Assembly (NCBI GenBank): GCA_028718605.1
Contig: JAQULM010000001.1
Coordinates: forward strand, 413,719 to 477,718
From: Patescibacteria group bacterium
Lineage (GTDB): Bacteria; Patescibacteriota; Patescibacteriia; UBA10025; JAHIVO01
Reading direction: 5' to 3'
Length of the DNA: 64,000 nucleotides
The position numbers and the translations under genes are program-made. Below are positions 2,030-25,463 of the stretch, one piece after another (the first letter of the stretch is position 1; every line of letters starts with the position of its first letter). The notes beneath the pieces were generated by a model, which did not search any database, had not been told where the DNA came from, and worked only from the letters and a program-made list of their open reading frames with translations.

Positions 2030-3508
2030 TCAATCAAGATTATTGCAATCCAAGGGCAGGCTATCGTTCCAGGTGTATTTTCCCGGTGCTGAACCTGGGA
2101 GATTTGAATTAACAATCTCGTCATGCGCTGCCTTGACCTTGATGACATAATTCCTCGTTTCCGCATATCCAGGATTCTTCACACACTCCCACCACGTCTG
2201 GCCGGCGCAGTCGACACTCGAGCAGTTCGCGCCGCGGCCGCCGTTGTATGCAGCGCTGATATACCGCCACGCACGCTCCAGGCATGCCGCATCACTTGCC
2301 GCGCATTTCCCACCATCCTGGCAACTCGTCAGGTCAGGTTCGCACTTCGCCGTCCGTCCGCTCTTGTATGTCGATTTTAGTGCGCATGTATAAACAAACA
2401 AATCTCTGAGATATTTGCCAGAAATTGTAATATTCGTAGCTGGGTCTTTCAATCCGTCGCACGTGATGCCCGTCTGGTACTTCTGGGCTGTAGCGGGCAT
2501 GAGTTGCATGAGACCGCATGCGCCGGCAGGCGACGTAAGGCCCGGCCTGCCCGAGGATTCAACCAGCATGATTGCCTTAAACCAGTTGCGATCCAGACCG
2601 TTCTTGGTTGCGGTATACGTCAAGCACCCGTCATATTTACCGACATTTGCCGATACGACAACACCTGATGACTTGGGGGTTACTTCCTGATTTTCAAGTG
2701 CTGAAACGCCGCGCGTGACTGCTTCCACGGATAGTTTTCCGAATTCCACAAGCCGCGGGCTAATGAATAAAAGTATTGAATATGATCCGAGCGCAATAAG
2801 GAGGCCCATGAGCGCACCGGTGATATTGTCTTTCGCTTCAGACAGCTTCTGGGGGTTGCCGAATGAAACCACGTACTTCACCCCGCCGTACATCCCCATC
2901 ACCGTCGCAAGGATGCCAACGACGCCTGTAAAATAAACGTATAATGCGACGATATATTCACCAAGCGTCAATCCGGTGACGACAATCGGCACGCCTCGAT
3001 TGAACGTTCCGGATCCGGGGATTGTGATGTTTGGCGTAAAGAGGATGCGTTTAGGCGCTTCATCCTTTGACAAATCACCTGCGGCAACAATCGCCGCCTG
3101 GCGATCCCACTCAATGCACTGTTCGACAAGGGGACATTCTTTTGGATTTGGCGTACAGGTCGGCTGGCATGGCGGTGTATACCCGCTTGCCTTGACGCAG
3201 CTTCCGATTTCTTCAGAGCCGCCTGGCGGTAGGCATACACAACATTTCATATTGCTCTGCTCGACGATTTTGCATTTTTCATAGTTATCGCAAGATCCAG
3301 GATACGCCATACCGTATCCTGACCCCATCGTAGTACAATCGGCTAGATCGCGATCATTGAGTGGAATGCACTCCCCCTGCTCAGCGCCAATACAACATCG
3401 GTCGCTTGCTCCGTATTGCGCTTGCGCCCCTGCTGGAAGAGGCAATGCAAATATAACCAGAGCACACAGTGGGACGATCTGGGAAATTGATCTGATGGTT
3501 GTGCGCAT
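2030..3508 (-). CDS. Secreted Cys-rich protein with a pilin-like two-helix hydrophobic hairpin and a C-terminal lytic transglycosylase (SLT, VirB1-like) domain
   Basis: Signal peptide (LCALVIFALPLPAGAQA); Cys-rich residues 35-135; hydrophobic hairpin YVYFTGVVGILATVMGMYGGVKYVVSFGNPQKLSEAKDNITGALMGLLIALGSYSILLFI (nt 2765..2950); SLT catalytic motif AIMLVESSGRPG...ACGLMQLMPATAQ (nt ~2129..2596). Confidence 0.6.
   Translation of the reverse strand: MRTTIRSISQIVPLCALVIFALPLPAGAQAQYGASDRCCIGAEQGECIPLNDRDLADCTTMGSGYGMAYPGSCDNYEKCKIVEQSNMKCCVCLPPGGSEEIGSCVKASGYTPPCQPTCTPNPKECPLVEQCIEWDRQAAIVAAGDLSKDEAPKRILFTPNITIPGSGTFNRGVPIVVTGLTLGEYIVALYVYFTGVVGILATVMGMYGGVKYVVSFGNPQKLSEAKDNITGALMGLLIALGSYSILLFISPRLVEFGKLSVEAVTRGVSALENQEVTPKSSGVVVSANVGKYDGCLTYTATKNGLDRNWFKAIMLVESSGRPGLTSPAGACGLMQLMPATAQKYQTGITCDGLKDPATNITISGKYLRDLFVYTCALKSTYKSGRTAKCEPDLTSCQDGGKCAASDAACLERAWRYISAAYNGGRGANCSSVDCAGQTWWECVKNPGYAETRNYVIKVKAAHDEIVNSNLPGSAPGKYTWNDSLPLDCNNLD
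2765..2950. repeat. Copy 1 of a ~150-190-nt repeat (~83% nt identity) encoding the pilin-like hydrophobic hairpin
   Basis: Aligned with 5562..5762 on the same strand; blocks such as tttcgcttc, agcttctgggggttgccgaa, ccgccgtacatccccatcac and ggatgcc..acgac are identical. Confidence 0.7.
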
Positions 3509-3512
3509 GTGC

Positions 3513-4781
3513 TTACTTTATCTGAATGGAATATACATTCGACGTATTCGCATCGATAAAATTCAAGTGTTTTTCATCTGCCGTCAGGAACACAGACGAT
3601 ACCGTATAATCACGCTGTCCGTCGTCAAACGCGGGTACGGCCAGCACCGTTGAGGTACCGGTGTTTGTATCAATTCGGTACATGACATCATTCGTATTCG
3701 TCGCTGTTTCTGGAACCAGGCCACTGCCCTCCGGCAGGCTCTGGGGCACCGCGCAATATGCAGCATTTTCGAGCTTCGCGAACGCGCACTTCGTCGACCA
3801 CGTGCGCAAACCGAGCCGCATATGGTTCGCGCCCGTCATATCACCTGATGAATCAACGAGATACAGCACCGGCTGGAAATCAGATTCGCTCGTAAACACG
3901 CTGTACAGGAGCTGTGTACCATCGGCAGACCATGTGCCTTCGAAACCGCGGCCATACGTCACGACGGATTTAAAATTTTCGCCAAAAAGCCCGATAGGAT
4001 ACACTTCCTGCGCTGTCGCATCGTTTGATTCGCGGTATAGGGCGAGTACCTGGCCGTTTGGGGACCAATTCACGTCTACATCTCTCTCTTTATCGCCGAT
4101 CGGCTCAATAAGCTGCACTTCGGACCCGTCTGATTTTGAATAAGCGAGCCAGCGGTCACCCTCATCATCCGATAAATTTTTGAAGCCGATCTTCGTTCCT
4201 GTTGGGTCAAACTCCGTATCATCCCATGTTTTCGGGAGCGTCACCTGCGTCTCATTCTCAAAATCATACACAATCTTGCTGTCGTCCGGGAATGTGATGA
4301 TTGCTTTATCCTGGGCTGGGGACCAATCAATCTCTTCGGCTTCAGGAAATGCCTTGTCCGACATTTCTGTTGCATTCCCGTTTTCATCGATAGTATAAAA
4401 CTTGCCCCGCCGCTCATCATAGTAACGCATGCCTTTACCACTCAACGCAGGCTCCGCGGCTTTTACACTCCGTGACACTGCGGGTGTTGCGGTGGTTTCG
4501 CCGCCTCCAGCTATCGGCGTCACTCCGCCGGCGTTCACATTCTGAAGTGTCGGAATATTCACTGGAGCATTTGTGTTCGCAACATTCACCCGGTTCATGT
4601 TTCCGGTCCCATTAATTGATGGCAAGTTCCCGTTCAGAGCGCCATTGGTGGGTACATTCACGTTCTCATTTTCATTACCTGGCGCGAAAACATCTCTGCC
4701 GATAACAAAGTAAATGAGGGCGCCGAGTGCGATGATGAGAACAATAAAAGCGATGATTAAAAGTACGCGCTTGGATTGCAT
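3513..4781 (-). CDS. Membrane-anchored PD40/TolB-like beta-propeller protein with an Asn-rich linker
   Basis: N-terminal TM helix (LLIIAFIVLIIALGALIYFVI), an N/T/G-rich low-complexity linker, then repeats of the WSPNGQ..LAL / WSADGTQLLY type typical of PD40 propeller blades. Confidence 0.5.
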   Translation of the reverse strand: MQSKRVLLIIAFIVLIIALGALIYFVIGRDVFAPGNENENVNVPTNGALNGNLPSINGTGNMNRVNVANTNAPVNIPTLQNVNAGGVTPIAGGGETTATPAVSRSVKAAEPALSGKGMRYYDERRGKFYTIDENGNATEMSDKAFPEAEEIDWSPAQDKAIITFPDDSKIVYDFENETQVTLPKTWDDTEFDPTGTKIGFKNLSDDEGDRWLAYSKSDGSEVQLIEPIGDKERDVDVNWSPNGQVLALYRESNDATAQEVYPIGLFGENFKSVVTYGRGFEGTWSADGTQLLYSVFTSESDFQPVLYLVDSSGDMTGANHMRLGLRTWSTKCAFAKLENAAYCAVPQSLPEGSGLVPETATNTNDVMYRIDTNTGTSTVLAVPAFDDGQRDYTVSSVFLTADEKHLNFIDANTSNVYSIQIK

Positions 4782-4892
4782 ATAGTATAGTATTTATAAT
4801 TTTTAATGAAGCACATACCCAAAGATTGGGGAGTCGATCGTATACGATTCAATAATTCTTTTTCTGCCGATTCAACATTCGGCGCATCAATT

Positions 4893-6011
4893 CTAATAGC
4901 AACGGGCTCCCTGAAATGCGCCAAGCAAATCTGGATCTCCTGGTTTCATGTCCTCGGCCGTAAAAATATGGTATCCGTACTTCTCTTCGCCGCCAAACAG
5001 TATTAAGCAGCTCTTCTTATCGCCTTCGCACTCTTTACCAATCACCAACTTACCAGTAGGCCATGCACCTTTGGCAATATATCCGCATGGCTCATTTCTT
5101 GTTACATGAGCATCACTTGTTTCCCCCTCATAATAGATCGGCCACGATTTAAATGCTCGAATCTCCTTACCCGCATCATTCGACATCGCAATACAAATCT
5201 CATCATCACTAGAATGCACGCCTTGGCATTCATCCTTGCCGTCTTTGTCCCAAATAAAGCCGCACGATTGGTATATTCGCTCCATGCAAAAATTCATGCC
5301 TTCCCACTGTGCCGTGCACCGGGGAATGCCGGTAAACGGATCCCGCACACAATATTGCTCCTTAAGCTCGCAATCAGTGCCCTTGTAATAACAGCGTTTG
5401 CCTTTTAAATTGCCAGCCGAGGTGATTGTGCCCTCTGTGCCACAGGTTTCCTGAGGCAACGGCGGGTCTACGACCAAGCCTTGGCTGACATACTCTTCGC
5501 AAAAATCTTCTACCTGTTGAATTTTACCAACATCAAGCGTCCCCAATATCGTCAGATTTGGATTAATAAAATACAGGATGCTGTACGACCCGAGCCCGAT
5601 CAGGAGACCCATAAGGGCGCCAGTAATCGTATCTTTCGCTTCGGATAGCTTCTGGGGGTTGCCGAACGAGATCACGTACTTTACGCCGCCGTACATCCCC
5701 ATCACGGTCGCCAGGATGCCGATGACACCCATAAAATAAATGTACAAGCCGGCAATATAGCAGCCCATATTCTTTACGTAGTGCCCGGTTGCGGTGCCAT
5801 CGCCGGTCGCCAGATCAATGGTAACATTGGGTATGGCGATATTGACACGGATCGCACTCCCATCGTTCACGTCAGTCTGGGTAATCGCACAACTCGGATT
5901 AAACGTCGTAAGCCATGTTTGCGCGCTCGCTAAAAGCGGTGCGGACACAAGCACGACCGCAATGATCAATCCCATGAATTTTCCTGCTTTTATCTTTTTC
6001 TCGGCGCGCAT
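4893..6011 (-). CDS. Secreted Cys-rich protein with a pilin-like hydrophobic hairpin (paralog of the hairpin in 2030..3508)
   Basis: Signal peptide; hairpin YIYFMGVIGILATVMGMYGGVKYVISFGNPQKLSEAKDTITGALMGLLIGLGSYSILYFI (nt 5562..5762) is nearly identical to the one in 2030..3508; C-terminal domain has many Cys. Confidence 0.5.
   Translation of the reverse strand: MRAEKKIKAGKFMGLIIAVVLVSAPLLASAQTWLTTFNPSCAITQTDVNDGSAIRVNIAIPNVTIDLATGDGTATGHYVKNMGCYIAGLYIYFMGVIGILATVMGMYGGVKYVISFGNPQKLSEAKDTITGALMGLLIGLGSYSILYFINPNLTILGTLDVGKIQQVEDFCEEYVSQGLVVDPPLPQETCGTEGTITSAGNLKGKRCYYKGTDCELKEQYCVRDPFTGIPRCTAQWEGMNFCMERIYQSCGFIWDKDGKDECQGVHSSDDEICIAMSNDAGKEIRAFKSWPIYYEGETSDAHVTRNEPCGYIAKGAWPTGKLVIGKECEGDKKSCLILFGGEEKYGYHIFTAEDMKPGDPDLLGAFQGARCY
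5562..5762. repeat. Copy 2 of the hairpin-encoding repeat
   Basis: See copy 1; the flanking domains of the two host genes are unrelated. Confidence 0.7.
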
Positions 6012-6056
6012 ACCCGCACTTTGTATTTAAATACTATAGCCTTTCAAGATGTACTG

Positions 6057-6728
6057 CTACTCGTGTCCCTGTGACGGCAAGAGGTCATTGATGTTAATAT
6101 TTGTGTTTGTCGAATTTGTATTTGCAGAAGGCGCTGCTGGTGTTATGCCTTCGCTGCCCCAGGTCGCTTCATCGACGAGCCAGGAGTTGCCTTCCTTCAA
6201 AAACTGAAGCTCGATATCCTGGTAGTACGTACCCTTGGCCGTGCCCTGCTCCGCACGCTGAGTGCTCAAAACGACATTTGCTCTCGTACCCGCAATTTCT
6301 ACGTCCTTCGTCGAAACAACCTTGGTGAACACCGAAGCAAACGCAGTTTCGCCGCGAGCAAGCTGCACGCGGATAAAGTCTTCGGAAACACTCTGCATCG
6401 TCGCAGTCATGTACGGCCGCAGGTCCAGAATATTCTGATATTTCGCTTCGCTGGAATAGCTCCCGTATCGTTCAGTAAAAAAATTCGCGAGCCTGACGAG
6501 CGTCAGTTCTTCGGGATCCGCGTTTGTATTTTGCCCCGGGACTGCTGTGTTCACCGTTGAATTCACGACTGGCACGGCACCGTTGGTATTCGTAACGGGG
6601 GCGGTATTATTCGTCGGTGTGTCGCCGTCCCTGAAAAACTGCCACCATACAAAAAATGCAATCACGAGAACGGCGCCCAGAGCGATAAGGATGATAATAA
6701 AATTTTTCCGCTTCTGTTCTTGATCCAT
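6057..6728 (-). CDS. Bitopic membrane protein with an Asn/Thr-rich linker (possibly a VirB8-like NTF2-fold periplasmic domain; speculative)
   Basis: N-terminal TM (FIIILIALGAVLVIAFFVWWQFF), an N/T-rich linker, and a ~130-aa C-terminal globular domain. It sits directly downstream of the VirB4-like gene. Confidence 0.4.
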   Translation of the reverse strand: MDQEQKRKNFIIILIALGAVLVIAFFVWWQFFRDGDTPTNNTAPVTNTNGAVPVVNSTVNTAVPGQNTNADPEELTLVRLANFFTERYGSYSSEAKYQNILDLRPYMTATMQSVSEDFIRVQLARGETAFASVFTKVVSTKDVEIAGTRANVVLSTQRAEQGTAKGTYYQDIELQFLKEGNSWLVDEATWGSEGITPAAPSANTNSTNTNININDLLPSQGHE

Positions 6729-6766
6729 AGGAAACTATTTTAGACAATTTTATACCAAAAGAGATG

Positions 6767-8668
6767 CTACTGTTGCTGTTGCTCTTCTTGCTCTTCCTGA
6801 GATTGCTCAAACTCCTTTTTCGCCTGCTCAATCTCCAAGAGCTGCCGCGGGTCGGACGTGATGATCTGGTCCTCAGTGTACGATGCCACAACCTTGATTG
6901 CCGCATGTTTCGCACCAGCAAAGAATATGCCTTCGCCGACTCCGCACTCGAGCAATAAATATTTTTCCCCTTCGGTGAGGAGGAATGTTTTTGCGATGAG
7001 ATCGATGGAGGCTGGCGACTGCTTCATCAGGAGCTGGATTGCGGAATTCGTCACGATCGCCTGGCCATACGGCGAACGGAGAAAGTCATTCACGTCCTGG
7101 GTAATCGTCGTAACGCCGAGATAGTATTTTCGGCAGCGCTTCACGAGGGCGTAAATGAACTTCGCCGACTCTTCCTGCTGCATAAGCCACCATGCTTCGT
7201 CGATTACCATGATGCGTTTTTTTAGCGCAGAACGCACGGTATTCCAGATATACGATACGATAAGGGAAATGCCGATCGGCTTCAACTCATCCTCCAGGTC
7301 ACGAACCGAGAAGACAACAAGCTGGTTGTTCAGTTCAACGTTGGTCGGATTATTCAGTAAACCGGCAAACGTGCCTTCGGTGTACTTTTTCAGGCGCGTT
7401 ACCAGCTCTTCGGCGCCAACCATGCCCTCAAGAACTTCTTCAAAATCCTTAAAGAGCGGCGGTTCAACGCGCGTTAAGTCTGCATCCGCAGTAATATCTT
7501 TCTTCGCGTACGTTTCGATGAGCGCGCGGTCAATGATAGAATCTTCCTCGTGGGTAAAAGTACCGAGCATCAAGCGCAGGAGGCCTTTTAGGGTGATCAC
7601 GGCGGAACGGATGATATCGGCGGTCTTTTCGTCTTTCCTGGTCGGCCGAGGCAGGTCAAATGGATTGATTTTGCTTTCTGAGCTCAATGAGATATTGATA
7701 TAGGTACCACCGACAGCGTCAGACAAATACTTATACTCCATTTCAGGATCAATGACGATCACGTCCGTACCGAGCATCATGCTCCGCAAAATTTCAAGCT
7801 TGACCGCGTAACTCTTGCCGGCGCCGGAAGTAGCGAATACTACGCTGTTTGCATTCTGCAGGCTAAACCGGTCAAAAAGAATCAAGCTGTTGTTGTGGCG
7901 ATTAATGCCGTAGAGAATGCCGTTATCGCTCGTTAGTTCCGAGGAAATAAACGGAAATGACGATGCGCATGGCGATGAACTCATATTGAATCCGATTCCG
8001 AGCTCATCTTCGGCGATCGGGAGCGTCGAGGTGAATCCCTGCTCGGCCTGGTAAAATACGCGCTTCGTATACACGAGCCGCGACCCGAAGAATGATTCAA
8101 CCTTCTCGGTAATTTTATCCAAATCTTCCTTCGACTTTGCGTACACTGTGATGTACAGCGCGTACTGGAAAAACCGCTCAACACCCTGCGTCAGGTCATC
8201 CCGTAATTTCTCGATATCACGGAGTGCCGTCTCGCGAATCGGGTCACGCGGCGCGCCCTTTTCCGCGTCAGCTAAAATCTGGGCTTCGAGGGTGCCTACT
8301 TTGTTCCGGAGCTGCTTCAGAATCACCTCAGCACCGATCGGGTAGAAAAACATCGATATGTCGAGCGGCACGTTGAGATTGATAATCGGCGCAAACCACC
8401 CAACGCGGATATATCGTGGGTACGTGACCACAAACATCGTACGGACAAACTGCGAACCAAGCTCAAGATAACGGGACTCGATCTTCATTGCAGCGGGCGC
8501 GATCAGGTCGCGGACCGTCACGACACCGCGGCGGTATACCTTTTCGGCCTCGATCAGGGTTTTTTTCTCCTCCAGCTGCTCCTGCTTCAAACGCTCCTGC
8601 TCTTCGGGAGACAGATCAGGAGCCGCCTCGGTCGGGATTGCCTTTCTGGATTTAAATAGCTCTACCAT
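6767..8668 (-). CDS. Type IV secretion ATPase of the VirB4/TrsE/PrgJ family
   Basis: N-terminal region typical of Gram-positive VirB4-like proteins (VTVRDLIAPAAMKIESRYLELGSQFVRTMFVVTYPRYIRVGW); Walker A VVFATSGAGKSYAV; Walker B/DEAW motif IMVIDEAWWLM. Confidence 0.8.
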   Translation of the reverse strand: MVELFKSRKAIPTEAAPDLSPEEQERLKQEQLEEKKTLIEAEKVYRRGVVTVRDLIAPAAMKIESRYLELGSQFVRTMFVVTYPRYIRVGWFAPIINLNVPLDISMFFYPIGAEVILKQLRNKVGTLEAQILADAEKGAPRDPIRETALRDIEKLRDDLTQGVERFFQYALYITVYAKSKEDLDKITEKVESFFGSRLVYTKRVFYQAEQGFTSTLPIAEDELGIGFNMSSSPCASSFPFISSELTSDNGILYGINRHNNSLILFDRFSLQNANSVVFATSGAGKSYAVKLEILRSMMLGTDVIVIDPEMEYKYLSDAVGGTYINISLSSESKINPFDLPRPTRKDEKTADIIRSAVITLKGLLRLMLGTFTHEEDSIIDRALIETYAKKDITADADLTRVEPPLFKDFEEVLEGMVGAEELVTRLKKYTEGTFAGLLNNPTNVELNNQLVVFSVRDLEDELKPIGISLIVSYIWNTVRSALKKRIMVIDEAWWLMQQEESAKFIYALVKRCRKYYLGVTTITQDVNDFLRSPYGQAIVTNSAIQLLMKQSPASIDLIAKTFLLTEGEKYLLLECGVGEGIFFAGAKHAAIKVVASYTEDQIITSDPRQLLEIEQAKKEFEQSQEEQEEQQQQ

Positions 8669-8673
8669 GATTT

Positions 8674-9363
8674 TTATTCGAGATTCAGCTTATTTATATC
8701 ATCCAAGCGCTGCTGGTCATATGTATCGGGATTGTACGTATTGTAGTACAGCTCAATCAACCCCTGCGTATCAAGGACGGCCGCTTTGAGCCCGATTGAA
8801 CTCAGTCCATCGATGATGTATTCCAACCGCTTCGCAAGTTCGATGCGGTTCTTCTCAAACTTTTTCTGCTTGATGCTGATAACAGTAGTTGGCGACGCGG
8901 CTTCCTTCAGTCGCGCAAGGAAACCTTTTGACCGGATTGATCCGCCGGTATACGGCACAATAATATAAAACCGTTTGCTCATAATATCGGCGAGCGACAC
9001 AAGCTCGGCTACATACTGGCGATACTCACGCGTCTGGACTTTCAGAAGTTCGTTTGTCTGCTCCTTCTCGATCGCTTTCAAGCGGTCAAGGTAGTCATCG
9101 ATATTCAGTTTGCGTGACTGGATGACGATTTGGAGCGGAAAATCAAGCGTATTGAGAAACTGAATATACCCCTGGATGACCGCGTTTTGTTCGTCTTCGG
9201 ACTTCAGCGCGAAATTGATGGACGAAACGAGAATGATGCCGCGAAGCGTACCGTCCTTGAGAATAACGGTATCGTCCCGTATCTCGAGGATCGGCAAATA
9301 CTGCTGCGTCGATGGCCGATGCAGCGGCTTCCTAATTTTATCCTGCTGTTTCTTCTCTGCCAT
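8674..9363 (-). CDS. Hypothetical T4SS-associated protein (resembles the N-terminal domain of VirB4-family proteins)
   Basis: ORF lies 5 nt upstream of the VirB4-like gene; the segment YLPILEIRDDTVILKDGTLRGIILVSSINFALKSEDEQ is reminiscent of VirB4 N-termini. I chose the start at the second Met (MAEKK) to avoid a 41-nt overlap with the upstream gene. Confidence 0.45.
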   Translation of the reverse strand: MAEKKQQDKIRKPLHRPSTQQYLPILEIRDDTVILKDGTLRGIILVSSINFALKSEDEQNAVIQGYIQFLNTLDFPLQIVIQSRKLNIDDYLDRLKAIEKEQTNELLKVQTREYRQYVAELVSLADIMSKRFYIIVPYTGGSIRSKGFLARLKEAASPTTVISIKQKKFEKNRIELAKRLEYIIDGLSSIGLKAAVLDTQGLIELYYNTYNPDTYDQQRLDDINKLNLE

Positions 9364-9379
9364 AAAAGCGTCCGTTGGT

Positions 9380-9814
9380 TTATTCCTGCTCAGGCGGCTC
9401 AATTTCTTCGTTATATGCACCGCCAGTATCCACGACGAGTGAAAGCTGGTTCAGCCGGGACAGGGTCAATTTCTTCTTCGGAACCGGCGGTTTAGGCTTC
9501 TCTTGTTTTTCCTCTTTGATGCGCTGTATGACTATTTCCTTGTTCCAAGTCTTCAGAATCGGGCGCCGCGCGGTCTGCAGCATATTGAGAAGAAAATAGT
9601 GGAACGGCCGGCCATTAATTTTCAGGAAAGCGAAAACGCCGGTCAGCGCAAAAATCATTATCCCCTCGATTGCTGCCATCCAGAATGTGGCGAGCTTGAA
9701 TACGATAAAAATCAAGCCGGCGCCGACTAAAAAGATAAGAAACTGCCGGACCGTCAACGGACCGATAATCTTTCCTTCAACGTCCAGGAATTGGGGCACA
9801 ACAAACTGCTGCAT
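9380..9814 (-). CDS. PrgI/VirB3-like small membrane protein
   Basis: 144 aa; N-terminus MQQFVVPQFLDVEGKIIGPLTVRQFLIFLVGAGLIFIV followed by a second TM, which matches the PrgI-family architecture. It is positioned just upstream of the VirB4-like ATPase, as VirB3-VirB4 usually are. Confidence 0.5.
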   Translation of the reverse strand: MQQFVVPQFLDVEGKIIGPLTVRQFLIFLVGAGLIFIVFKLATFWMAAIEGIMIFALTGVFAFLKINGRPFHYFLLNMLQTARRPILKTWNKEIVIQRIKEEKQEKPKPPVPKKKLTLSRLNQLSLVVDTGGAYNEEIEPPEQE

Positions 9815-9819
9815 ATGAA

Positions 9820-11205
9820 TTACACGCCGAGCGTGCTATTTAAATTATTGATCGCGAGGAATTCTTCCATAAGAAGCGTCGGATGATTTTCCTGTGCGCG
9901 TCTCGTGAGTATCTGCTCAATTGACCGATTCGTGTCAATGCTCTCTCGGCCGATATCAATATAAAGTTTGAATACGGGCGCGAGTTTCCATGCGCCAACC
10001 CCCTCGCTCCGGCGCTGATATGAATCTTCTTCGAGGAGATCAATTTTCTCCAACACTTTCTCCGCGGACTCCTGTGGATTTGTGCCGAGCCTTCTAAATT
10101 CCTTCAAATCAATTTCCCCAATTTCCTCAACAGGACCGACAATGTGCATCGGTTGGCGAATATCTACCATCTGGGGACGGTCAGGCTCGATCGATGACGG
10201 GATTGGTGTGCGCTTCGGCAGCTCTTCGGGTGAACGCGCGTAAAGCGATACGGCTTCTGCGCTCATGGGTTGGACCGGCTGTGGCGCCGGTACGGCAGGC
10301 GTTTCCTCAATGGGCACTGAACGCGCTGGGGCAACTGGCTCGACAGGCAACGGAGTTACGGATTGAAGAGCAGGTGGTTTGACTGGTGCAACCTGCTGTG
10401 CCGGCTCTGGCGGGATCTGTTCGACAGAAGGAACAAATGGTTTTGGAAGTTCTTTCTTCACTTCGCCGGGTTTCGGAACAAACGCCGGTGGCGTTGGTGC
10501 AAACATGCCTCCCTGCCCGACGAGGTCCACGCCCCATTTCTTGAGGTTCGCCCGTGGTGCTTCTGCCGTTCGAGGCTGCGCGGCGACGGCGACGCCCGCC
10601 TCATGGAACACAGCTGCCCTTTGTTCCGCAAGGTTGAGCACACGATCCGCCTCGGCTGATGATAACTCTATTCCGCCAATTTTTTTCGGCCGCATGAGCA
10701 CTTCCCGCGCCTCAATGGACGTCCTGATATCACGCAGGCGCGATTCGAGTACCTTTGAAAACCTCTTTATCAAGAGATCGTCTTCGAGCCGTACGCCGCT
10801 CTCACGAAGGATTTCCTCAATGGCTGTATTGAGGGCTACGGTGGCAGCCAGCTGCGGAGCTCCGCCCATTGCTTCGAGATCACGGGCATGCTGCTCGATT
10901 TCCTCAATATCCTCCGGCTCCAAGTTGAGCGGCGCCTTCCCTGCCGACATAACGGGCATTGGCCGCGGTGCTATTGCCGCGGATGGGGCGGGTTTCTGCG
11001 GCACAAACAGAGGGGGTGTAACAGGCGGCATGGGAGGTTTCGGAAGCGGTTCCGGAGCAGGCGGCTCACGGCGGGCGGGAACCGCGGTTTTCGGTACTGT
11101 TACGTCAACGATCTGCCCGTCCTCGACTTTTTTGAATTGGCCGCTTTTATCGCGTATCAAAAAACTCTGCGATAGATCAGAATTGTTTGGATCATTCACG
11201 TCCAT
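9820..11205 (-). CDS. Pro-rich hypothetical protein (first gene of the T4SS-like operon)
   Basis: 461-aa ORF with PxxP-rich segments and a conserved-looking C-terminal ~100 aa. There is no TM and no recognisable catalytic motif. Confidence 0.45.
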   Translation of the reverse strand: MDVNDPNNSDLSQSFLIRDKSGQFKKVEDGQIVDVTVPKTAVPARREPPAPEPLPKPPMPPVTPPLFVPQKPAPSAAIAPRPMPVMSAGKAPLNLEPEDIEEIEQHARDLEAMGGAPQLAATVALNTAIEEILRESGVRLEDDLLIKRFSKVLESRLRDIRTSIEAREVLMRPKKIGGIELSSAEADRVLNLAEQRAAVFHEAGVAVAAQPRTAEAPRANLKKWGVDLVGQGGMFAPTPPAFVPKPGEVKKELPKPFVPSVEQIPPEPAQQVAPVKPPALQSVTPLPVEPVAPARSVPIEETPAVPAPQPVQPMSAEAVSLYARSPEELPKRTPIPSSIEPDRPQMVDIRQPMHIVGPVEEIGEIDLKEFRRLGTNPQESAEKVLEKIDLLEEDSYQRRSEGVGAWKLAPVFKLYIDIGRESIDTNRSIEQILTRRAQENHPTLLMEEFLAINNLNSTLGV

Positions 11206-12151
11206 GCAAGAGAGTAGTTATTGGTCTCGTTTGAGTAATATATATCTTTTTCTTCTCGATAGCCCACTCGATATCCTGAGGGCATCGATAATGCGCCTCA
11301 ATCCGCTTGCACATGCGGGCGAGCTCGACTATCTGCGAACCAGTGAGGACTTGCGCGTCCTGGAGTTTCCGGGGTAGGCGGACAGTTTTGGTGCCGGCAC
11401 CCGGTTTCCGGATAATCATTTTCTCCTGTGTCGAAACGTTAACGTCAAGAATTACTTCATCTTCTTTGTCGATAATGTACGTATCAGGGGTAATCATGCC
11501 CGATACAATCGCTTCGCCGAGGCCGAATCCTGCTTCGATAACCATTTGTTTCCGGTCCTTCGTGACCGGGTGGGCAGTGAAGCAGACCCCGGATACCTGC
11601 GAATTCACCATTTTCTGCACAACAACTGCGACGCTGACTTTTGTTTTGTGAAGTTTCCTTTCGTACCGATAGAAAATCGCCCGGGGCGTGAATAGGGATG
11701 ACCAGCAGCTTTTAACTGCCCCAAATAGCTTCTGCTGAGTAATAAATAAATATGTTTCGAGCTCGCCTGCCCAGGATGCGATTGAAGAATCCTCTGCGGT
11801 TGCCGAGGACCTGACGGCAACGTATGGGGCGCGGAGTTTTCGGAACATTTGCAAGACTTCTTTCTTGAGGTCACCCGGGAAACGGGCGTCATGAATCAAA
11901 TCGCGTATCTCATGAGAAAAACGGTCAACCGACGTAAGGTCCCGATGATTCAGGCGGTCAAGCCCTGCGTCTATCTCAACACCAATATCGGTCTCCTCGA
12001 GAAAACGTTCAAATGCAGGCGCGAGAATCACAAACCCCGGCGGTACCGGGATCCCACTCTGTACCATTTCGCCAAGATTCGCTCCTTTTCCGCCAGCGAC
12101 ACTTACACTTTTTTTTGATAATTCCGAGAAAGAAGATACGTACGTAAACAT
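11192..12151 (-). CDS. Stand-alone PEP synthase / pyruvate phosphate dikinase N-terminal ATP-grasp (PPDK_N) domain protein
   Basis: Motifs VSVAGGKGANLGEM and VAVRSSATAEDS are the PPDK_N/PEP-synthase ATP-binding signatures. The 319 aa are roughly the ATP-grasp domain alone, with no swivel or substrate domain. Confidence 0.8.
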   Translation of the reverse strand: MFTYVSSFSELSKKSVSVAGGKGANLGEMVQSGIPVPPGFVILAPAFERFLEETDIGVEIDAGLDRLNHRDLTSVDRFSHEIRDLIHDARFPGDLKKEVLQMFRKLRAPYVAVRSSATAEDSSIASWAGELETYLFITQQKLFGAVKSCWSSLFTPRAIFYRYERKLHKTKVSVAVVVQKMVNSQVSGVCFTAHPVTKDRKQMVIEAGFGLGEAIVSGMITPDTYIIDKEDEVILDVNVSTQEKMIIRKPGAGTKTVRLPRKLQDAQVLTGSQIVELARMCKRIEAHYRCPQDIEWAIEKKKIYITQTRPITTLLHGRE

Positions 12152-12311
12152 GCGATTGGTTTCAGATACGGCTCCGCAATCGAGCTTAAAAAGTCGTGTT
12201 ATTAAATGACTTTTTCTTTAATGTAAGTGGCTTCATTATAGCATAATTTTTCAAGAAAATCAAACCATCTCCCGTACGTTTCTGTAATTTATCTGGCGGC
12301 GAATGTACTTG

Positions 12312-12340
12312 AAAAAACAGCAAAAAAATGGTATTTTATA
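12312..12340 (+). promoter_or_regulatory. Candidate sigma70-like promoter for the 12350 gene
   Basis: TTGAAA, 17-nt spacer, TATTTT, located ~10 nt upstream of the ATG at 12350. Confidence 0.3.
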
Positions 12341-12349
12341 ATCAACAAT

Positions 12350-13408
12350 ATGGCAACGCCAAACCAACAAGCCGACATACAACGTGCACGCGAATACAGC
12401 ACCGCACTTCGAGCTGATAAAGCCAAGCGAGAATCTAGAATTGCTGCACGGCTTGCCGCCACAACCAATAAAGTTGAGGGGATGAAACAGATTATCGAAC
12501 AGGAAACAGCGATGCGGGTAATGAATGAGAAAGCAAATGCGGATGATGTCATACGGGGCGCTGGCATGATGGAGCGCTTGGATGCTGACAATGCCGGGGA
12601 AGGCGGGCAGGCTGGGCAAGCGCAAAGTAAAAAAAATGAGGCAGCGCGCCGAGAAATTGCAGAAGAATTTGACCAACCCGGCGACACTGATGCTTTGGCG
12701 GAATCAGAAAACAGCGCACAAGGGCAGCATGGCGACCTCAGTAGCTTAAAAAATAAAATGCCCTCAATGCCTGTCGGCGATAGCATCCAGGTACCCCGTT
12801 CCCCGGGAGAACAAACTGGCGAGGGCGGTGGTGACGAAGAGCAAAGCCCGCCAGATGAAAATCAAGACGTGGTCCGCAAAGACCAGGAGTCGGCTACTGC
12901 CCGCCAGATGCATCTTAAGCAGACTAAGGCGCTCGCCGACAAACGGGAACAAGCGGTCGCCGACGAAGAAATCGCAGTAGCCGAGCAGGCAGAGGTTGAA
13001 GCCGCCGGTGAAGAAGCGCAAGCAACAGGGAAACCGCTAAAACCGATCCCGACGCTCCCTTTCGCCATGATGCTCGCACTCGCAATTATGAAAGATGGCG
13101 TAGATTTTTTTGATTGGGGATTTCTCGGCGTTGTGCTCAACCTCATACCGATTATGGGGATAACCATTATTGTGTTAATTACTGGCGGCTCACTGTCGAA
13201 CTTCATCAGCAAGAAAAAATGGCTCTTCGCGTCAGGCGCTGCAGTAGAATTTATCCCTATCATTGGCTTTATGCCGATCTGGACCATCACGATCATCTGG
13301 ATGTGGATTGAGGGGAAACGCCAGAAACCTGTTTCCGGACGGGTTGCTGCACGGTATACCCGCCGCATTGCGAACAGAGGTAAGTCAGCACTGCGGTTGC
13401 TTAAATGA
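12350..13408 (+). CDS. Hypothetical membrane protein (charged coiled N-terminus, C-terminal TM hairpins)
   Basis: 352-aa ORF; an E/A/Q-rich N-terminal 230 aa, then three or four TM segments; followed by an intrinsic terminator. Confidence 0.5.
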   Translation: MATPNQQADIQRAREYSTALRADKAKRESRIAARLAATTNKVEGMKQIIEQETAMRVMNEKANADDVIRGAGMMERLDADNAGEGGQAGQAQSKKNEAARREIAEEFDQPGDTDALAESENSAQGQHGDLSSLKNKMPSMPVGDSIQVPRSPGEQTGEGGGDEEQSPPDENQDVVRKDQESATARQMHLKQTKALADKREQAVADEEIAVAEQAEVEAAGEEAQATGKPLKPIPTLPFAMMLALAIMKDGVDFFDWGFLGVVLNLIPIMGITIIVLITGGSLSNFISKKKWLFASGAAVEFIPIIGFMPIWTITIIWMWIEGKRQKPVSGRVAARYTRRIANRGKSALRLLK

Positions 13409-13458
13409 TGCGGCAGTCTTCCGCATCCTGTCTATTTTAATAAAATGATATGTTCGAC

Positions 13459-13480
13459 AAACCGCACGGCGCGGTTTTTT
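13459..13480 (+). terminator. Rho-independent terminator
   Basis: AACCGC-acggc-GCGGTT stem-loop followed by TTTTTT, 50 nt after the stop of 12350..13408. Confidence 0.6.
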
Positions 13481-13620
13481 GTTCCTTGTGCAGTTGCAGC
13501 GACCTACATGCTTTCATTGACAAACACGATTCCCCATGGTACGGTGAGATGCTACTTACTTGGTTACGAACAAAAAAACGAAACATAGACGTCCACCCTT
13601 TGGCGGACAGGAGGATTGAA

Positions 13621-14274
13621 ATGAAATCCCTGATGCTTGTTCGGAACTCACTCCCGGACGCAAATGGGAGTATTCGGCATTGGGCTGGCATCAACCTGGC
13701 GTGGGTCGCGGGTACATTCTTCGGCCCGACGCAGAATGTATCGTATGCAGCGGCAAGCGGCGAACGTTCTGCGGTCGAAACCGCTGAACTGTACCTCGGC
13801 GCTGCGGGATTTAACCACGTTCCGATCGTACCGAACGACATGCTCGACTCCCCACGAAGGCTGGTCCTCCCCGAATTCGCTGAGCAGCTGGCAATGCAGG
13901 CGGCACACCGGGGAGTCACGTTCGATGAGATACTGTTTGAACCGGAAACAGGCTTGAATGCGGAGATTGCGCGTTACGCCCAGGCTGCGTACTCGTTTCT
14001 GGTGGGACACGTGAAGTCAGCGAGCGACAATGAGGCCGTGATTGCCTTTTCCCACGCAATCACGATTGAGGCGATCGTCATCACTGCCCTGCGTACCAGT
14101 TGCGGAGTACCACTCTCCCGCCCGTATGCGCTCGATGAAATCAAAGGCATGCTCGGGTACGCAGAAGCCTATACCGTCCTTTTTGCGGGGGACAATAAGC
14201 CGACGCGAATTATCCGGCCGAGCACCGCAGAACTGCTCGCATTGCTCCCCCAGCTCGTGAAGAAGCCCCACTAA
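13621..14274 (+). CDS. Hypothetical protein, possibly a degenerate histidine-phosphatase-fold protein
   Basis: I chose the start at the ATG preceded by GGACAGGAGGA (SD). The protein has LVRNSL where RHG is expected, and a late SHAITIEA segment resembling the second-His region. An in-frame upstream ATG (13546) cannot be excluded. Confidence 0.4.
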   Translation: MKSLMLVRNSLPDANGSIRHWAGINLAWVAGTFFGPTQNVSYAAASGERSAVETAELYLGAAGFNHVPIVPNDMLDSPRRLVLPEFAEQLAMQAAHRGVTFDEILFEPETGLNAEIARYAQAAYSFLVGHVKSASDNEAVIAFSHAITIEAIVITALRTSCGVPLSRPYALDEIKGMLGYAEAYTVLFAGDNKPTRIIRPSTAELLALLPQLVKKPH

Positions 14275-14302
14275 CACGGCTCTTCCCCTGCTCCAAAACG
14301 AG

Positions 14303-14345
14303 GCCCGGTCGCTCTCTCATACGACCGGGCTCTCATTATTTATTC
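14303..14345 (+). terminator. Rho-independent terminator
   Basis: Perfect 9-bp stem GCCCGGTCG...CGACCGGGC followed by a T-rich tract, right after the stop at 14274. Confidence 0.55.
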
Positions 14346-14359
14346 TGGCACAGCAACTC

Positions 14360-14388
14360 TTGACAAATCCACAACGCCATGCTATTAT
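14360..14388 (+). promoter_or_regulatory. Sigma70-like promoter
   Basis: TTGACA (14360-14365), 17-nt spacer, TATTAT (14383-14388). Confidence 0.55.
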
Positions 14389-14412
14389 GCTCTGTTAAAT
14401 AACAACCAAATA

Positions 14413-14553
14413 GCTGAGGAGAGAATACGAATGTACACTGTTTCGTAGTGAGTACGATATCCTCAATGCCAAGCAGTGTGTTTTTGTAAGTAATTGACAA
14501 TCTATCTACTGAAACCACACAACCGTCCGCCCCATGGTGGACAGGAGGAATTG
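14413..14553 (+). promoter_or_regulatory. Long 5' leader with a 5-codon uORF (MYTVS) overlapping a terminator-like hairpin, then a conserved SD-proximal hairpin
   Basis: SD GAGGAGAG, then ATG TAC ACT GTT TCG TAG (14431..14448). ACACTG (14435-40) pairs with CAGTGT (14474-79) and is followed by GTTTTTG. Downstream sits GTCCGCCCCATGGTGGACAGGAGGAATTGATG. Confidence 0.35.
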
Positions 14554-15228
14554 ATGCAATTTCTAGGAATCTGTGAAACCGCAAAACAAGTGGGGGAGTT
14601 CGTCCCGGAAACCGCGACGAACGTAAATGCCCTCACCCGGCACAGCAAATCAGTCCAGGAAGGACCGAACCGCTCCAGAACGCTCATTCCCTTGGGAATT
14701 GAGTTGTGCGCCGCCGTACGTCCTCAATACGGACACCTCGGGCTGCTCAAGGTCCTGACGACCCGATTCGGCAACCCGCTGATCAGACATAGCGAGATGA
14801 TCCGGGCCGCGCTGACCGGCTGGGAGATTCTGCATCCAACGCAATTCACGGCCGATAGCCGTATCACACTCGCCGTAAGCCTGAAGAAAATTAAGGGCGG
14901 TGCATGGTACGACGAGATGAAGAAGGCCGGCAGGTCGATCGGCGAAATGTTGACCACGGTCCACCATGAACTGACTATGCTGGACAGCCAGCCGTACGAT
15001 CAACGCATGTCCGAGATGTATGACTTCTTCACGGAAGTCGGCACCGACTGCAAATTCAGGTGGGGCTTTGGACACGAACCGGAACCTACGCTCTGCGTTC
15101 TGAAGCACAATCTCATCCCGGAGGAACACGTCGGTCTGCTCGAATGCCAGTCGTACATCGTATTCACCGATGATCAGCGGAACATCGTCGGGGTCATCAA
15201 GTTCTGCCCACCGGCTACCATCAAGTAG
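14554..15228 (+). CDS. Hypothetical protein, possibly a divergent histidine-phosphatase fold
   Basis: Start chosen at the ATG after the GGAGGA SD; contains LTRHSKS (RHG-like) and a late GFGHEPEP segment. No other recognisable motif. Confidence 0.45.
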   Translation: MQFLGICETAKQVGEFVPETATNVNALTRHSKSVQEGPNRSRTLIPLGIELCAAVRPQYGHLGLLKVLTTRFGNPLIRHSEMIRAALTGWEILHPTQFTADSRITLAVSLKKIKGGAWYDEMKKAGRSIGEMLTTVHHELTMLDSQPYDQRMSEMYDFFTEVGTDCKFRWGFGHEPEPTLCVLKHNLIPEEHVGLLECQSYIVFTDDQRNIVGVIKFCPPATIK

Positions 15229-15357
15229 CCAGTGCTGAAAAGGATCCTGACCGATTCTAATCAGCCAAAATGAGACCATCCAACGTCTTCGTACGGAGGG
15301 TGGTTTTTTTATCGCACAAACAGTATACTGAAATAACTACTTACTAACAATACTTCT

Positions 15358-16269
15358 ATGGGAGAAATGCACAATTTCGAAATATCATCCCAGTTTGAAC
15401 ATCGGGAAGGAGAAAAAGAACGGCCCAATCTGACCGTGTACCTCATGCGGCACGGCGAAACTGAAACCGACAAATCGAAACCGAACCGCGGTCTTACCGA
15501 GCATGGCCAGGAACAGGTAAGAGAAAACTTCAATGGCATCATCGACCAACTGATACAAGAAGAAGTGCCAGAATTTCGGGACTTCGACGATCCGGAAAAA
15601 CGTAAAGCTGCTGCCGTACAAGCGTTCTCGAAAGTTGAAATGCACCTCGCGGAATCCGGCACTGACCGCACCCAAGAGCAGGTTTGGCTTGAACGCGGAA
15701 TCCTCATTGACATGGGCGTGCCTCCCGAGGACCTGCATTTGCCGAAGTCAACCTACGAATGGGCAGTAAAGAACGGGAAGATCGAAGCGATGCCCGAAGA
15801 CGGCGGTCCAGGGGTCAAGCGCCGGCTTGCTGGCGTTGGCGGTATGGATAGTGCCAAAGAGTTCAGGAAAAAAATCAGCAACCCTGAATACCAGGCGCAG
15901 ATCGGCGCGACGGACGAAATTATCGCGTGGGCAAAAACGCCGGATGATGAAATCCCGGAAGGCGTTGAGACGAGGAACCAAATGGAAGCCCGCCTGCAAA
16001 GCGACCTCGGCAAAGTAGAGCACGTTGCCAGTAAACGCCTCAACGGCCGCCCGAAACGGACTGTGTATGTTGCGAATAGCCATGCCTCAATACTCACGCT
16101 TGCCGCTTCCTCAGAGTTAAACGCGCCGATTGAACAGGTCGGAGAAATTGAAAACGGGGAAGGCCTCCGCCTCGACTTCTACGGCGAGGGTAAAGCGCAC
16201 ACCGCACAGCCATTTGGAAAAAATACGGAAGCGAAATTTCAGCGACTCAGGGAACAGCCGTCGGCTTAA
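15358..16269 (+). CDS. Histidine phosphatase superfamily protein (phosphoglycerate mutase/SixA-like)
   Basis: N-terminal motif VYLMRHGETE (RHGE with the catalytic His), LTEHGQEQ, and a C-terminal second-His segment VYVANSHASIL. Confidence 0.7.
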   Translation: MGEMHNFEISSQFEHREGEKERPNLTVYLMRHGETETDKSKPNRGLTEHGQEQVRENFNGIIDQLIQEEVPEFRDFDDPEKRKAAAVQAFSKVEMHLAESGTDRTQEQVWLERGILIDMGVPPEDLHLPKSTYEWAVKNGKIEAMPEDGGPGVKRRLAGVGGMDSAKEFRKKISNPEYQAQIGATDEIIAWAKTPDDEIPEGVETRNQMEARLQSDLGKVEHVASKRLNGRPKRTVYVANSHASILTLAASSELNAPIEQVGEIENGEGLRLDFYGEGKAHTAQPFGKNTEAKFQRLREQPSA

Positions 16270-16286
16270 TAAACTGCCATAACAAA

Positions 16287-16312
16287 ACCGCCTTACACCA
16301 AGGCGGTTTTTT
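16287..16312 (+). terminator. Rho-independent terminator
   Basis: AAACCGCCTT-acacc-AAGGCGGTTTTTTATT, immediately after the stop at 16269. Confidence 0.65.
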
Positions 16313-16331
16313 ATTATACAAAAAGAAGACC

Positions 16332-17852: not shown

Positions 17853-18454
17853 AATGCTCTCGTAATGGCACGCCGCATCTGTTTGAAGTTTTTATATAAA
17901 ATCGTGTTTACGCCCATTTTGGAGGGTTCAACCAGGTTTGCCGCTTGATCATCGATGTAAACTATCTCAGATGGCTTTACCCGAAAACGGCGACAAATGT
18001 ACGCGACGGTCTTCTTGCTCGCCTTGGGAAGGTTCAGCGACTGCGTATTGATACTGTCGTCAAAATACTTCTTGAAACCGAGCGCTTTATCAAAATACGC
18101 AAACCACGCCACCAGGTTCTTGCTCAGGATAATGCACGTGTACCCGCGATGGCGCAAGCGAGTGACGTACTGCACGACTGATCTACGAAGTTCCGTATGC
18201 CGCAAGTGCCATGCCCTCATCGCGCGCCAGTCCTGGCGCCACCCGAGTTCTCGAATTGGGCGAATCCAACCCTGGCGTTCGGTGATCTTATTTTCGGCAA
18301 TTAAGTTGAAATACTTCGTATATAAAACGTTAAAAACCGCTTGCCATGGGGTTCCGTGGATTTTCGCGAAATGCCGGCTTGTTTTTTTATGGTCACCGAT
18401 CACGGTAACGCCGTTGAAGTCAAAAATGATTAATTGTACGTGTTTCTTGTTCAT
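17849..18454 (-). CDS. HAD-fold hydrolase-like protein with non-canonical motif I (DxN)
   Basis: LIIFDFNGVTV (motif I with the second Asp replaced by Asn), motif IV-like YIDDQAANL. Its ends overlap both neighbours by 4 nt. Confidence 0.65.
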   Translation of the reverse strand: MNKKHVQLIIFDFNGVTVIGDHKKTSRHFAKIHGTPWQAVFNVLYTKYFNLIAENKITERQGWIRPIRELGWRQDWRAMRAWHLRHTELRRSVVQYVTRLRHRGYTCIILSKNLVAWFAYFDKALGFKKYFDDSINTQSLNLPKASKKTVAYICRRFRVKPSEIVYIDDQAANLVEPSKMGVNTILYKNFKQMRRAITRAL

Positions 18455-19974: not shown

Positions 19975-19978
19975 ACCG

Positions 19979-21511: not shown

Positions 21512-21516
21512 ACTCC

Positions 21517-24373: not shown

Positions 24374-24466
24374 TCACTTCTGCAAATAAAAATCCACCCA
24401 AAAACCTTCGATAGATATCCATTGAAACCATACCCGGATTATGCCGCCGTTTGAAAAATGGTACCC

Positions 24467-24494
24467 TTGACTGAACCATATATTTCGGTATATT
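24467..24494 (+). promoter_or_regulatory. Sigma70-like promoter
   Basis: TTGACT (24467-72), 16-nt spacer, TATATT (24489-94), upstream of the GGGAGG SD and the ATG at 24552. Confidence 0.5.
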
Positions 24495-24551
24495 CAAGCT
24501 ACAAACAGCTCATTGGCAAAAGGGGGGCCAAGAAAACCGGGAGGTATTGTA

Positions 24552-25006: not shown

Positions 25007-25017
25007 AACTGATGCCA

Positions 25018-25047
25018 AACCGCCTGGGTTCCCTGGGCGGTTTTCAA
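25018..25047 (+). terminator. Rho-independent terminator
   Basis: ACCGCCTGGG-ttc-CCTGGGCGGT stem (two G-U pairs) followed by TTTT. Confidence 0.5.
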
Positions 25048-25115
25048 TTGTGGGGGCCGGGCAACGAATGGAGTGGGTGCTGCAGCACGCTTCCATAAAT
25101 CACCAACGTGGAAAA

Positions 25116-25382: not shown

Positions 25383-25463
25383 AGAATTACCGTTAGTATA
25401 CTCGGTTTAACTGCACATTCGCAAATCAAAAACAGCCCCTAAAAAGGCCTTCCGCTGAAATAA

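Follow-up and report, generated by a model that had tools for sequence, protein, structure and literature searches.

The stretch of DNA analysed here, 64,000 nt in length and hereafter called the window, comes from a Patescibacteria group bacterium (GenBank assembly GCA_028718605.1, contig JAQULM010000001.1, positions 413,719 to 477,718 of the forward strand) and carries genes of a type IV secretion system (T4SS). Between positions 620 and 12151, ten closely packed open reading frames (ORFs) run along the minus strand, from a PPDK_N gene through radA, and the eight at 2030-11205 form a co-directional T4SS module, whose genes we number from g8 (first) to g1 (last); all genes of the system described below lie on the minus strand. 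Every ORF is intact, and the close spacing of the genes in the module, which overlap or lie ~4-110 nt apart, resembles that of a single operon. The best promoter-like site, at 12263-12235, is a weak hint, given that promoter and terminator counts were no higher than in shuffled sequence. A first-pass annotation, made from the sequence without database searches, had set out these eight minus-strand ORFs at the coordinates and in the order that we recover. It had also called the module a minimal T4SS, a term that misleads, because VirB6 and conserved accessory genes bring the system to at least 10-12 genes.

What do the eight genes encode? At the centre is g5 (6767-8668), a 633-aa VirB4 ATPase without its own N-domain. 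It matches P-loop_TraG (PF19044) with 101 bits against a cut-off of 25.8 (E 6.5e-29), is matched in Pfam by AAA_10 as well, and passes the cut-off of NF045971, the model for VirB4-like conjugal transfer ATPases of the CD1110 family (355.5 versus 325 bits, covering profile positions 161-729 of 752). A Walker A motif (ATSGAGKS, at residue 279) and the motif VIDEAW are present, and a Gram-positive VirB4 in the PDB (4ag5) is matched at E 4e-47. On this sequence evidence, the ATPase would belong to the MPF_FATA lineage. The preceding gene, g6 (8674-9420), is a 248-aa ORF whose translation probably starts at Met20 (position 9363), giving the 229 aa called by NCBI. Its product covers positions 2-119 of the NF045971 profile and positions 87-233 of the VirB4 model from Mycoplasma integrative and conjugative elements (ICEs; E 1e-12), matches TrsD (NF041427) at E 2.5e-6, under that model's 200-bit cut-off, and bears a precomputed Pfam annotation as TraC-like (PF26593). 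Since g6 and g5 cover successive parts of one VirB4 model, g6 is, by its profile matches, a separately encoded, split-off VirB4 N-domain like TrsD of pGO1-type systems. Ahead of it, g7 (9380-9814) encodes a PrgI/VirB3-like membrane protein of 144 aa with two transmembrane (TM) segments (residues 25-43 and 49-67) and a PF12666 match of 32.1 bits (cut-off 27; E 1.8e-7). On the other side of the ATPase gene, g4 (6057-6728) encodes a conserved bitopic protein of 223 aa, composed of an N-terminal TM segment, an Asn/Thr-rich linker and an NTF2-like domain, whose predicted fold points to VirB8.

Two of the remaining products carry a pilin-like hairpin. In g3 (4893-6011; 372 aa), a signal peptide is followed by a VirB2-like hairpin at residues ~86-149, matching PF18895 (T4SS_pilin) with 28.0 bits against a cut-off of 26.6, and by a 220-aa Cys-rich extracellular C-domain; the protein has 16 Cys. 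The product of g1 (2030-3508; 492 aa) is a fusion of a VirB2-like hairpin with a VirB1-like lytic transglycosylase (SLT) domain, arranged as signal peptide, Cys-rich N-domain, hairpin (residues ~183-249; PF18895, 30.5 bits) and SLT (residues 298-427; PF01464, 63 bits against a cut-off of 21.3), with 27 Cys in total. We prefer the 492-aa reading, which includes the signal peptide, to NCBI's call of 406 aa. Both proteins thus have a signal peptide at the start and a two-helix hairpin with a short basic loop, and the resulting N-out/C-out topology predicts that the Cys-rich and SLT domains lie outside the membrane. The combination of PF18895 and PF01464 occurs in at least 50 protein clusters, every named one of which is from Patescibacteria. 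Wherever a related locus had an SLT gene near virB4, that gene was fused to a hairpin (12/12), and the hairpin proteins in those loci are all 300-520 aa long. A small stand-alone pilin was not found in the window, its only hairpins being those of g1 and g3.

The two hairpins are strikingly alike. Their cores (2753-2944 and 5556-5747) are 86% identical in protein and 77% in DNA, and 26 of the 55 codons that specify the same amino acid differ synonymously. This is not a peculiarity of one genome: across 19 genomes, the paralogous hairpins within a genome have a median identity of 77%, as compared to 44-47% for orthologues between genomes. Recent gene conversion is ruled out by the 77% DNA identity and the many synonymous differences, and the pattern of protein against DNA identity indicates either co-evolution or an old conversion event. 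Likeness within genomes is what one expects if both hairpins dock into, or polymerise within, one structure, and a shared site or polymer that the two proteins have to fit is suggested by it. The two hairpins also align to positions 8-76 of the 80 in NF045849, a pilin-like model built on Mbov_0395 of a Mycoplasma ICE, at E ~1e-5 (g3, 2.4e-5) and below its cut-off. It is a hint that part of the MPF_FATA lineage may have pilin-like hairpins of its own, rather than ones borrowed from diderm systems.

Between the hairpin genes lies g2 (3513-4781; 422 aa), a PD40/TolB-like beta-propeller that is predicted to be extracytoplasmic and held by an N-terminal TM anchor. The window copy scores 18.3 for PD40, below the threshold of 20.9, but 20 of 32 orthologues match (best E 3.8e-8). 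The TolB propeller model TIGR02800 is hit at E 8.7e-5, two Cys are invariant, and the gene is present in 33 related loci. Neither g3 nor the PD40 family profile found a match among PDB sequences. The gene that opens the VirB3-VirB4 block, g8 (9820-11205), encodes a cytoplasmic orphan protein of 461 aa with 13% Pro, in which an N-terminal beta-hairpin and two helical domains (residues 97-202 and 358-459) are joined by Pro-rich linkers; Pfam and NCBIfam offered nothing usable for it even at E<=10. The labels proposed at first pass for these genes, namely a VirB4-like ATPase with Walker A and DEAW motifs, a PrgI/VirB3-like protein, two Cys-rich pilin-hairpin proteins (one with SLT), a PD40 propeller and a Pro-rich protein, have therefore held, that of the propeller through its orthologues.

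How widespread is this arrangement? A VirB4 scan over one genome per GTDB species yielded the 80 closest loci, whose VirB4 is 56-92% identical in amino acids to that of the window. Where the title is informative, it names a Patescibacteria lineage, and ~30 third-party-annotation records of metagenome-assembled genomes (MAGs) carry other or generic labels (uncultured Gammaproteobacteria, Bdellovibrionales, Methylomirabilis, 'bacterium'); none of the 80 is named as a cultured organism from outside the Candidate Phyla Radiation (CPR). The named loci comprise Kerfeld-, Uhr-, Magasanik-, Falkow-, Buchanan-, Veblen-, Nomura- and Moranbacteria, which mostly fall in class ABY1 according to a table in Quinonero-Coronel et al. 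2025 (PMC12102498). The nearest named relatives are Kerfeldbacteria, of class ABY1, and g4, g8 and RadA are 100% identical to proteins of the Patescibacteria MAG GCA_028711455.1. By tblastn, g6 was detected in 76 of the 80 loci, g7 in 74, g8 in 69 and g4 in 64, in the order of the window, while the hairpin proteins, the PD40 protein and radA were detected in 30-36, many loci being incomplete.

The first-pass annotation had assigned a VirB6-like component to a giant operon at some distance, and synteny indicates that this operon was once contiguous with the module. Within the first ~400 residues of the protein in question, which is 2082 aa long (33255-39503), 7-8 hydrophobic segments make up a polytopic domain (residues ~40-430); a K/E-rich extension of ~1700 aa that contains no Cys follows (residues 374-2082). 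Nothing in Pfam or NCBIfam matches the N-domain of the window copy even at E<=10, and its profile returned noise only from PDB sequences. In hhalign comparisons, the match with pCF10 PrgH was not significant and that with R388 TrwI was weak (E 0.0075, over an SPL...P...QWW motif). Among 40 orthologous N-domains (26-43% identity), 10 match PF04610 (TrbL/VirB6), with a best E of 2.9e-5. A library search with the family found 15,860 cluster representatives at E<=1e-3, and the best 150 of these are nearly all 800-2000 aa long with the polytopic domain at the N-terminus. Of the 46 loci that extend at least 8 kb upstream, 36 have the N-domain upstream of the module, and ORF coordinates place the orthologues, typically 900-1500 aa, directly before g8. 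Position, topology and the family-level evidence are our reasons for accepting the 2082-aa protein as probably VirB6-like.

On which side of the membrane would the long extension lie? The loop after the last TM segment holds 16 K+R as against 5 D+E. Because this loop is basic, in line with the positive-inside rule, and because the extension is free of Cys while the neighbouring 3589-aa protein, g1 and g3, all with signal peptides, are rich in it, the extension is probably cytoplasmic. The C-terminus of Agrobacterium tumefaciens VirB6 is cytoplasmic as well. Next to the VirB6 gene lie two further genes. The product of one, x676 (29847-31877; 676 aa, without TM segments), is a paralogue of residues 440-1072 of the 2082-aa protein (33% identity over 646 aa, E 1e-97), which marks the membrane-proximal part of the extension as a discrete, duplicable domain; as with g8, Pfam and NCBIfam held nothing usable for it even at E<=10. 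The other, x453 (31864-33225), encodes a soluble accessory protein of 453 aa, whose homologues lie between VirB6 and g8 in 11 loci. It matched no family in Pfam or NCBIfam and nothing among PDB sequences. As none of x453, x676 and g8 contains a Walker A motif, we rejected the idea that any of them is a cryptic ATPase or type IV coupling protein (T4CP).

From the synteny of relatives, the ancestral operon would have read: giant surface protein, extended VirB6, (x453), g8, VirB3, TrsD, VirB4, VirB8, hairpin/PD40/hairpin-SLT and radA. In the window, the VirB6 gene is now ~22 kb from the module, and an insertion of ~18.6 kb (11192-29746, genes on mixed strands, four of them on plus), which is not part of the T4SS, separates the two halves. 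It consists of a lone PPDK_N ATP-grasp gene (11192-12151; 319 aa), which overlaps the start of g8 by 14 nt, and of six paralogues of 506-549 aa with interleaved HAD phosphatases. The sole recognisable part of these paralogues is a C-terminal PEP-utilizers swivel (phospho-His) domain, as in rifampin phosphotransferase or PEP synthase, and by its domains the insertion looks like a split multi-paralogue phosphotransfer system. A PPDK_N gene immediately precedes g8 in 11 relatives, and in loci L017-L019 it is placed between VirB6 and g8. Severed in this way from its VirB6 half, the VirB4 half could be imagined as a decaying, functionless remnant, but we give this hardly any credence in view of the intact ORFs, the tight junctions, the 56-92% identity of VirB4 to its relatives and the preserved Walker A and DEAW motifs.

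Could the module instead belong to an integrated element, as an ordinary T4SS for conjugation or mobilisation whose coupling protein and relaxase are encoded at another place? The membership of VirB4 in a conjugative family (CD1110, 355 bits) would fit, as would the T4CP-like genes that most Patescibacteria genomes carry away from virB4 (PMC12102498) and a TrwB-like gene situated <10 kb from virB4 in two related loci. Pfam scans of presumed coding-frame ORFs of at least 144 aa, however, showed no T4CP, relaxase, VirB11 or integrase in the 64-kb window, and tblastn with PcfC and PcfG of pCF10 and TrwB, TrwC and TrwD of R388 found no match in the window or within 10 kb beyond either end. The TrwB query served as a positive control, being the one that had picked up the T4CP-like gene in the two related loci. 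A relaxase was thus absent from window and flanks (64 kb and 20 kb, respectively) by Pfam and tblastn (PcfG, TrwC), oriT not having been searched for, and tRNAs, boundary repeats and an integrase were likewise absent there. Those flanks contain housekeeping genes (recG, a Na/Ca exchanger and greA beyond position 1; a pseudouridine synthase, lspA and glutamate dehydrogenase on the other side) and no conjugative element, the finding that the first-pass annotation had named as fatal to its own reading. Its statement that coupling protein, relaxase and VirB11 are missing holds for the window and for 10 kb beyond each end; as regards VirD4, it does not extend to the genome as a whole, given the T4CP-like genes that PMC12102498 reports elsewhere in most Patescibacteria genomes, and 'lacking VirD4' is therefore a statement on the locus only.

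Inheritance also speaks against a mobile origin. The locus keeps its chromosomal synteny across many lineages, and VirB4 has diverged less than RadA, with median identities over the same loci of 73% versus 55%, a comparison that has to be read with the caveat that the loci were picked via VirB4 peptides. For a T4SS ATPase, such constraint appears unusually strong. A scan of IMG/VR found no relatives of this VirB4, which lends no support to a phage or plasmid origin. For the phylum at large, PMC12102498 reports relaxases in 103 of 3,035 genomes and, for 99.3% of VirB4 proteins, a closest relative from the same class. A conjugative apparatus of an integrated element is thus very unlikely. Taking together the 80 related loci with their conserved order, the identity of VirB4 relative to RadA, the housekeeping flanks, the lack of integrase, tRNA and repeats, and the blank result from IMG/VR, we conclude that the system is chromosomal and probably inherited vertically. 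More fully, we think it probable that the region is one half of a chromosomal Patescibacteria-clade T4SS, derived from MPF_FATA and handed down vertically in an ABY1-class, Kerfeldbacteria-like CPR bacterium, and that it serves exchange with a host cell and not conjugation.

A different role is suggested by the gene at the end of the module. The recombination helicase gene radA (620-1966; AAA_25, Zn-ribbon and Lon_C/ChlI domains in Pfam) lies 63 nt downstream of g1 on the same strand, and no terminator was predicted between them on the minus strand, a weak hint for the reason given above, so that radA may be co-transcribed with the module. Three recombination or branch-migration helicase genes cluster here: radA, recG next to it outside the window, and comM at 62694-63914. 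In a machine of the competence type that imports DNA from a host or from the environment, like ComB of Helicobacter pylori or the archaeal Ced system, RadA, RecG and ComM would process incoming DNA for recombination or nucleotide salvage. This is the main rival to host-cell exchange, with gene linkage as its support. Of the 39 loci whose sequence continues for at least 9 kb past virB4, 26 have radA downstream of the module, at a distance within 10 kb in all 26, and where the pilin block is inverted radA has remained beside it; recG follows next; and PMC12102498 describes comF, recG and radA near the T4SS in ABY1. Importers such as ComB also combine a VirB4-family ATPase with the lack of a relaxase, as found here. 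RadA and RecG are general housekeeping proteins, however, and the Pfam scans found no ComEC, ComEA or ComF in the window, nor was a ComEC/CedA-like partner seen there. The match of g5 to CedB is weak and generic (E 5e-10, against a cut-off of 700 bits), far below that to the conjugative VirB4 model (E 5.6e-106). In Southlakia, which is of another class, competence needs type IV pili and ComEC, and deletion of comEC leaves the cells viable, whereas the T4SS is essential (PMC12857230, PMC10633639). On balance, we judge DNA import improbable as the role of this system.

What might an exchange machine look like? Directly upstream of VirB6, a 3589-aa Cys-rich secreted or surface protein (39529-50298) has a signal or TM segment at residues 17-35, 185 Cys, and CBM_4_9 and dockerin domains. 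Its C-terminal parts have homologues upstream of VirB6 in 13 loci, and by domain content and position it is a candidate adhesin of the system. The giant is preceded by a 297-aa membrane-anchored protein (39529-51218 for the pair) with Ca-binding repeats that are Asp-rich and thrombospondin-type-3-like. We envisage that VirB4/TrsD, docked via VirB3, VirB6 and VirB8, would power the assembly of an envelope-spanning channel, into which the hairpin proteins would dock, unless they form or cap a short pilus-like structure. The tethered SLT domain might open peptidoglycan, the cell's own or that of a host, while the giant Cys-rich protein with its CBM and dockerin domains would mediate adhesion. On the inside, the position that a coupling protein occupies in conjugative systems may be filled by the Cys-free VirB6 extension, x676, x453 and g8, as the cytoplasmic face. 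The example of Southlakia epibionticum suggests that the machine would exchange proteins or other molecules with a host cell. Considered on function alone, it is most likely such an exchange system and not a conjugation apparatus, a conclusion drawn by analogy.

Several points weigh against this interpretation. Function is read wholly from homology and from analogy with a different class, the Saccharimonadia. The VirB6 domain and the PD40 propeller of the window are themselves below threshold and were assigned via orthologues. A plain hydropathy count of 7 TM segments would place the VirB6 extension outside the cell, hairpin subunits that each carry domains of 200-300 aa may be unable to build a true polymeric pilus, so that the hairpin may be an anchor only, and the genome may have a T4CP-like gene at another site. 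To our knowledge, no member of ABY1 has been cultured.

A bolder version of host-cell exchange is conceivable, but doubtful. Here, the ABY1 T4SS would have been rebuilt around proteins that display their cargo on a hairpin: a conserved VirB2-like hairpin, nearly the same in the paralogues of any one genome, would plug a lytic transglycosylase and a Cys-rich, adhesin-like cargo into one pilus or stalk that pierces the host wall. In the cytoplasm, x676, x453, g8 and the giant VirB6 extension, which is free of Cys, would replace the coupling protein as a platform for substrate recruitment. If true, DNA could be among the substrates, given the linkage to radA and recG.

Elsewhere in the window, the leucyl-tRNA synthetase (54036-57212, minus strand; 1058 aa) contains a Ham1p-like/ITPase domain (PF01725, residues 245-386, E 1.4e-8) between its catalytic core and its editing domain. 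The same insert appears in the precomputed Pfam annotation of this gene in locus L084.

Among the few large machines that nearly all CPR/Patescibacteria have retained is the T4SS, which in the single genetically tractable species is essential for growth on the host. The window provides an ABY1-class example with the core parts identified: VirB3, split VirB4, a VirB6-like protein, VirB8, pilin-like proteins and a hydrolase. Its conserved lineage-specific parts, i.e., the Pro-rich protein, the PD40 propeller, the hairpin fusions and the VirB6 extension, are targets for structural modelling and for the interpretation of cryo-electron tomograms.

How does the system compare to those already known? 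With MPF_FATA systems of Gram-positive bacteria (TrsC-TrsD-TrsE of pGO1/pIP501, PrgH-PrgI-PrgJ-PrgK-PrgL of pCF10, CD1110 of CTn2), it shares the gene order VirB3-like, TrsD, VirB4 and bitopic protein, as well as a VirB4 above the CD1110 cut-off, a protein of VirB8 fold, a membrane-tethered peptidoglycan hydrolase and the absence of an outer-membrane core. These systems differ in having their own T4CP (PcfC/TraJ), a relaxase and surface adhesins, and in having no pilin; tblastn with PcfC, PcfG, PrgH, PrgI, PrgK and PrgL found no match in the window. Mycoplasma ICEs come close in another respect, as the hairpins match the Mbov_0395 model and VirB4 and TrsD match the Mbov_0397 model (E 3e-81 and 1e-12, respectively). 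All these scores, however, are below the NCBIfam cut-offs, and the Mycoplasma genes reside on mobile ICEs with integration and transfer functions. The 2082-aa protein recalls the 'extended VirB6' proteins of Rickettsiales Rvh and similar T4SSs (PMC12857230), which likewise join a polytopic VirB6-like domain to a very large hydrophilic C-terminal domain; a paralogue of the extension, x676, is present as well. The organism here is a monoderm, however, and the extension is Cys-free and probably cytoplasmic. The two are likened by architecture, and no sequence relationship of the extensions is to be expected.

The closest counterparts are the systems of Patescibacteria themselves. In Southlakia, Wang et al. 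2023 (PMC10633639) found the T4SS genes SEML1_0006-0019 together with pilin genes to be essential for epibiotic growth and saw no recognisable coupling protein or relaxase, and a FEMS review of 2025 (PMC12857230) describes the same system in the same terms. Quinonero-Coronel et al. 2025 (PMC12102498) placed the VirB4 proteins of Patescibacteria in a monophyletic clade inside MPF_FATA; the systems of this clade have TrsD, PrgI and PF18895 pilins, rarely a relaxase, and few VirB8 homologues detectable by hidden Markov models, almost all of the latter in ABY1. The 'Gram-positive/CPR-style T4SS' of the first-pass annotation, taken there not to serve plasmid conjugation, agrees with these three sources. 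The window shares with this clade a chromosomal location, an MPF_FATA VirB4 with separate TrsD, PrgI/VirB3, a probable VirB6, PF18895 pilins by virB4, a cell-wall hydrolase, a locus devoid of relaxase and T4CP and, as in ABY1, radA/recG neighbours and a VirB8.

There are also differences. Southlakia has six small, sequence-divergent pilins, while the window has its two hairpins, 86% identical to each other, in proteins of 372 and 492 aa, the opposite of the divergent pilin arrays that PMC12102498 describes in Saccharimonadia and Microgenomatia. Beyond the Southlakia system, the window has a PD40 propeller, a Pro-rich orphan, a VirB6 of 2082 aa and an operon split by 18.6 kb. The examined parts of PMC12102498 make no mention of SLT, PF01464, a propeller, PD40 or a giant protein. 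Likewise, the VirB8 fold assignment, the fusion of hairpin and SLT, the PD40 and Pro-rich accessories and the operon split do not appear in the examined parts of PMC10633639, PMC12102498 and PMC12857230, nor do the within-genome likeness of hairpins and the Cys-free VirB6 extension with its paralogue, PMC12102498 not having been searched for an extended VirB6 or the hairpin pattern. The Cys-free extension of ~1700 aa and hairpins that co-evolve within genomes may thus go beyond that literature. The system itself has been described since 2023, which makes the copy in the window a well-resolved further example of it and not a new kind.

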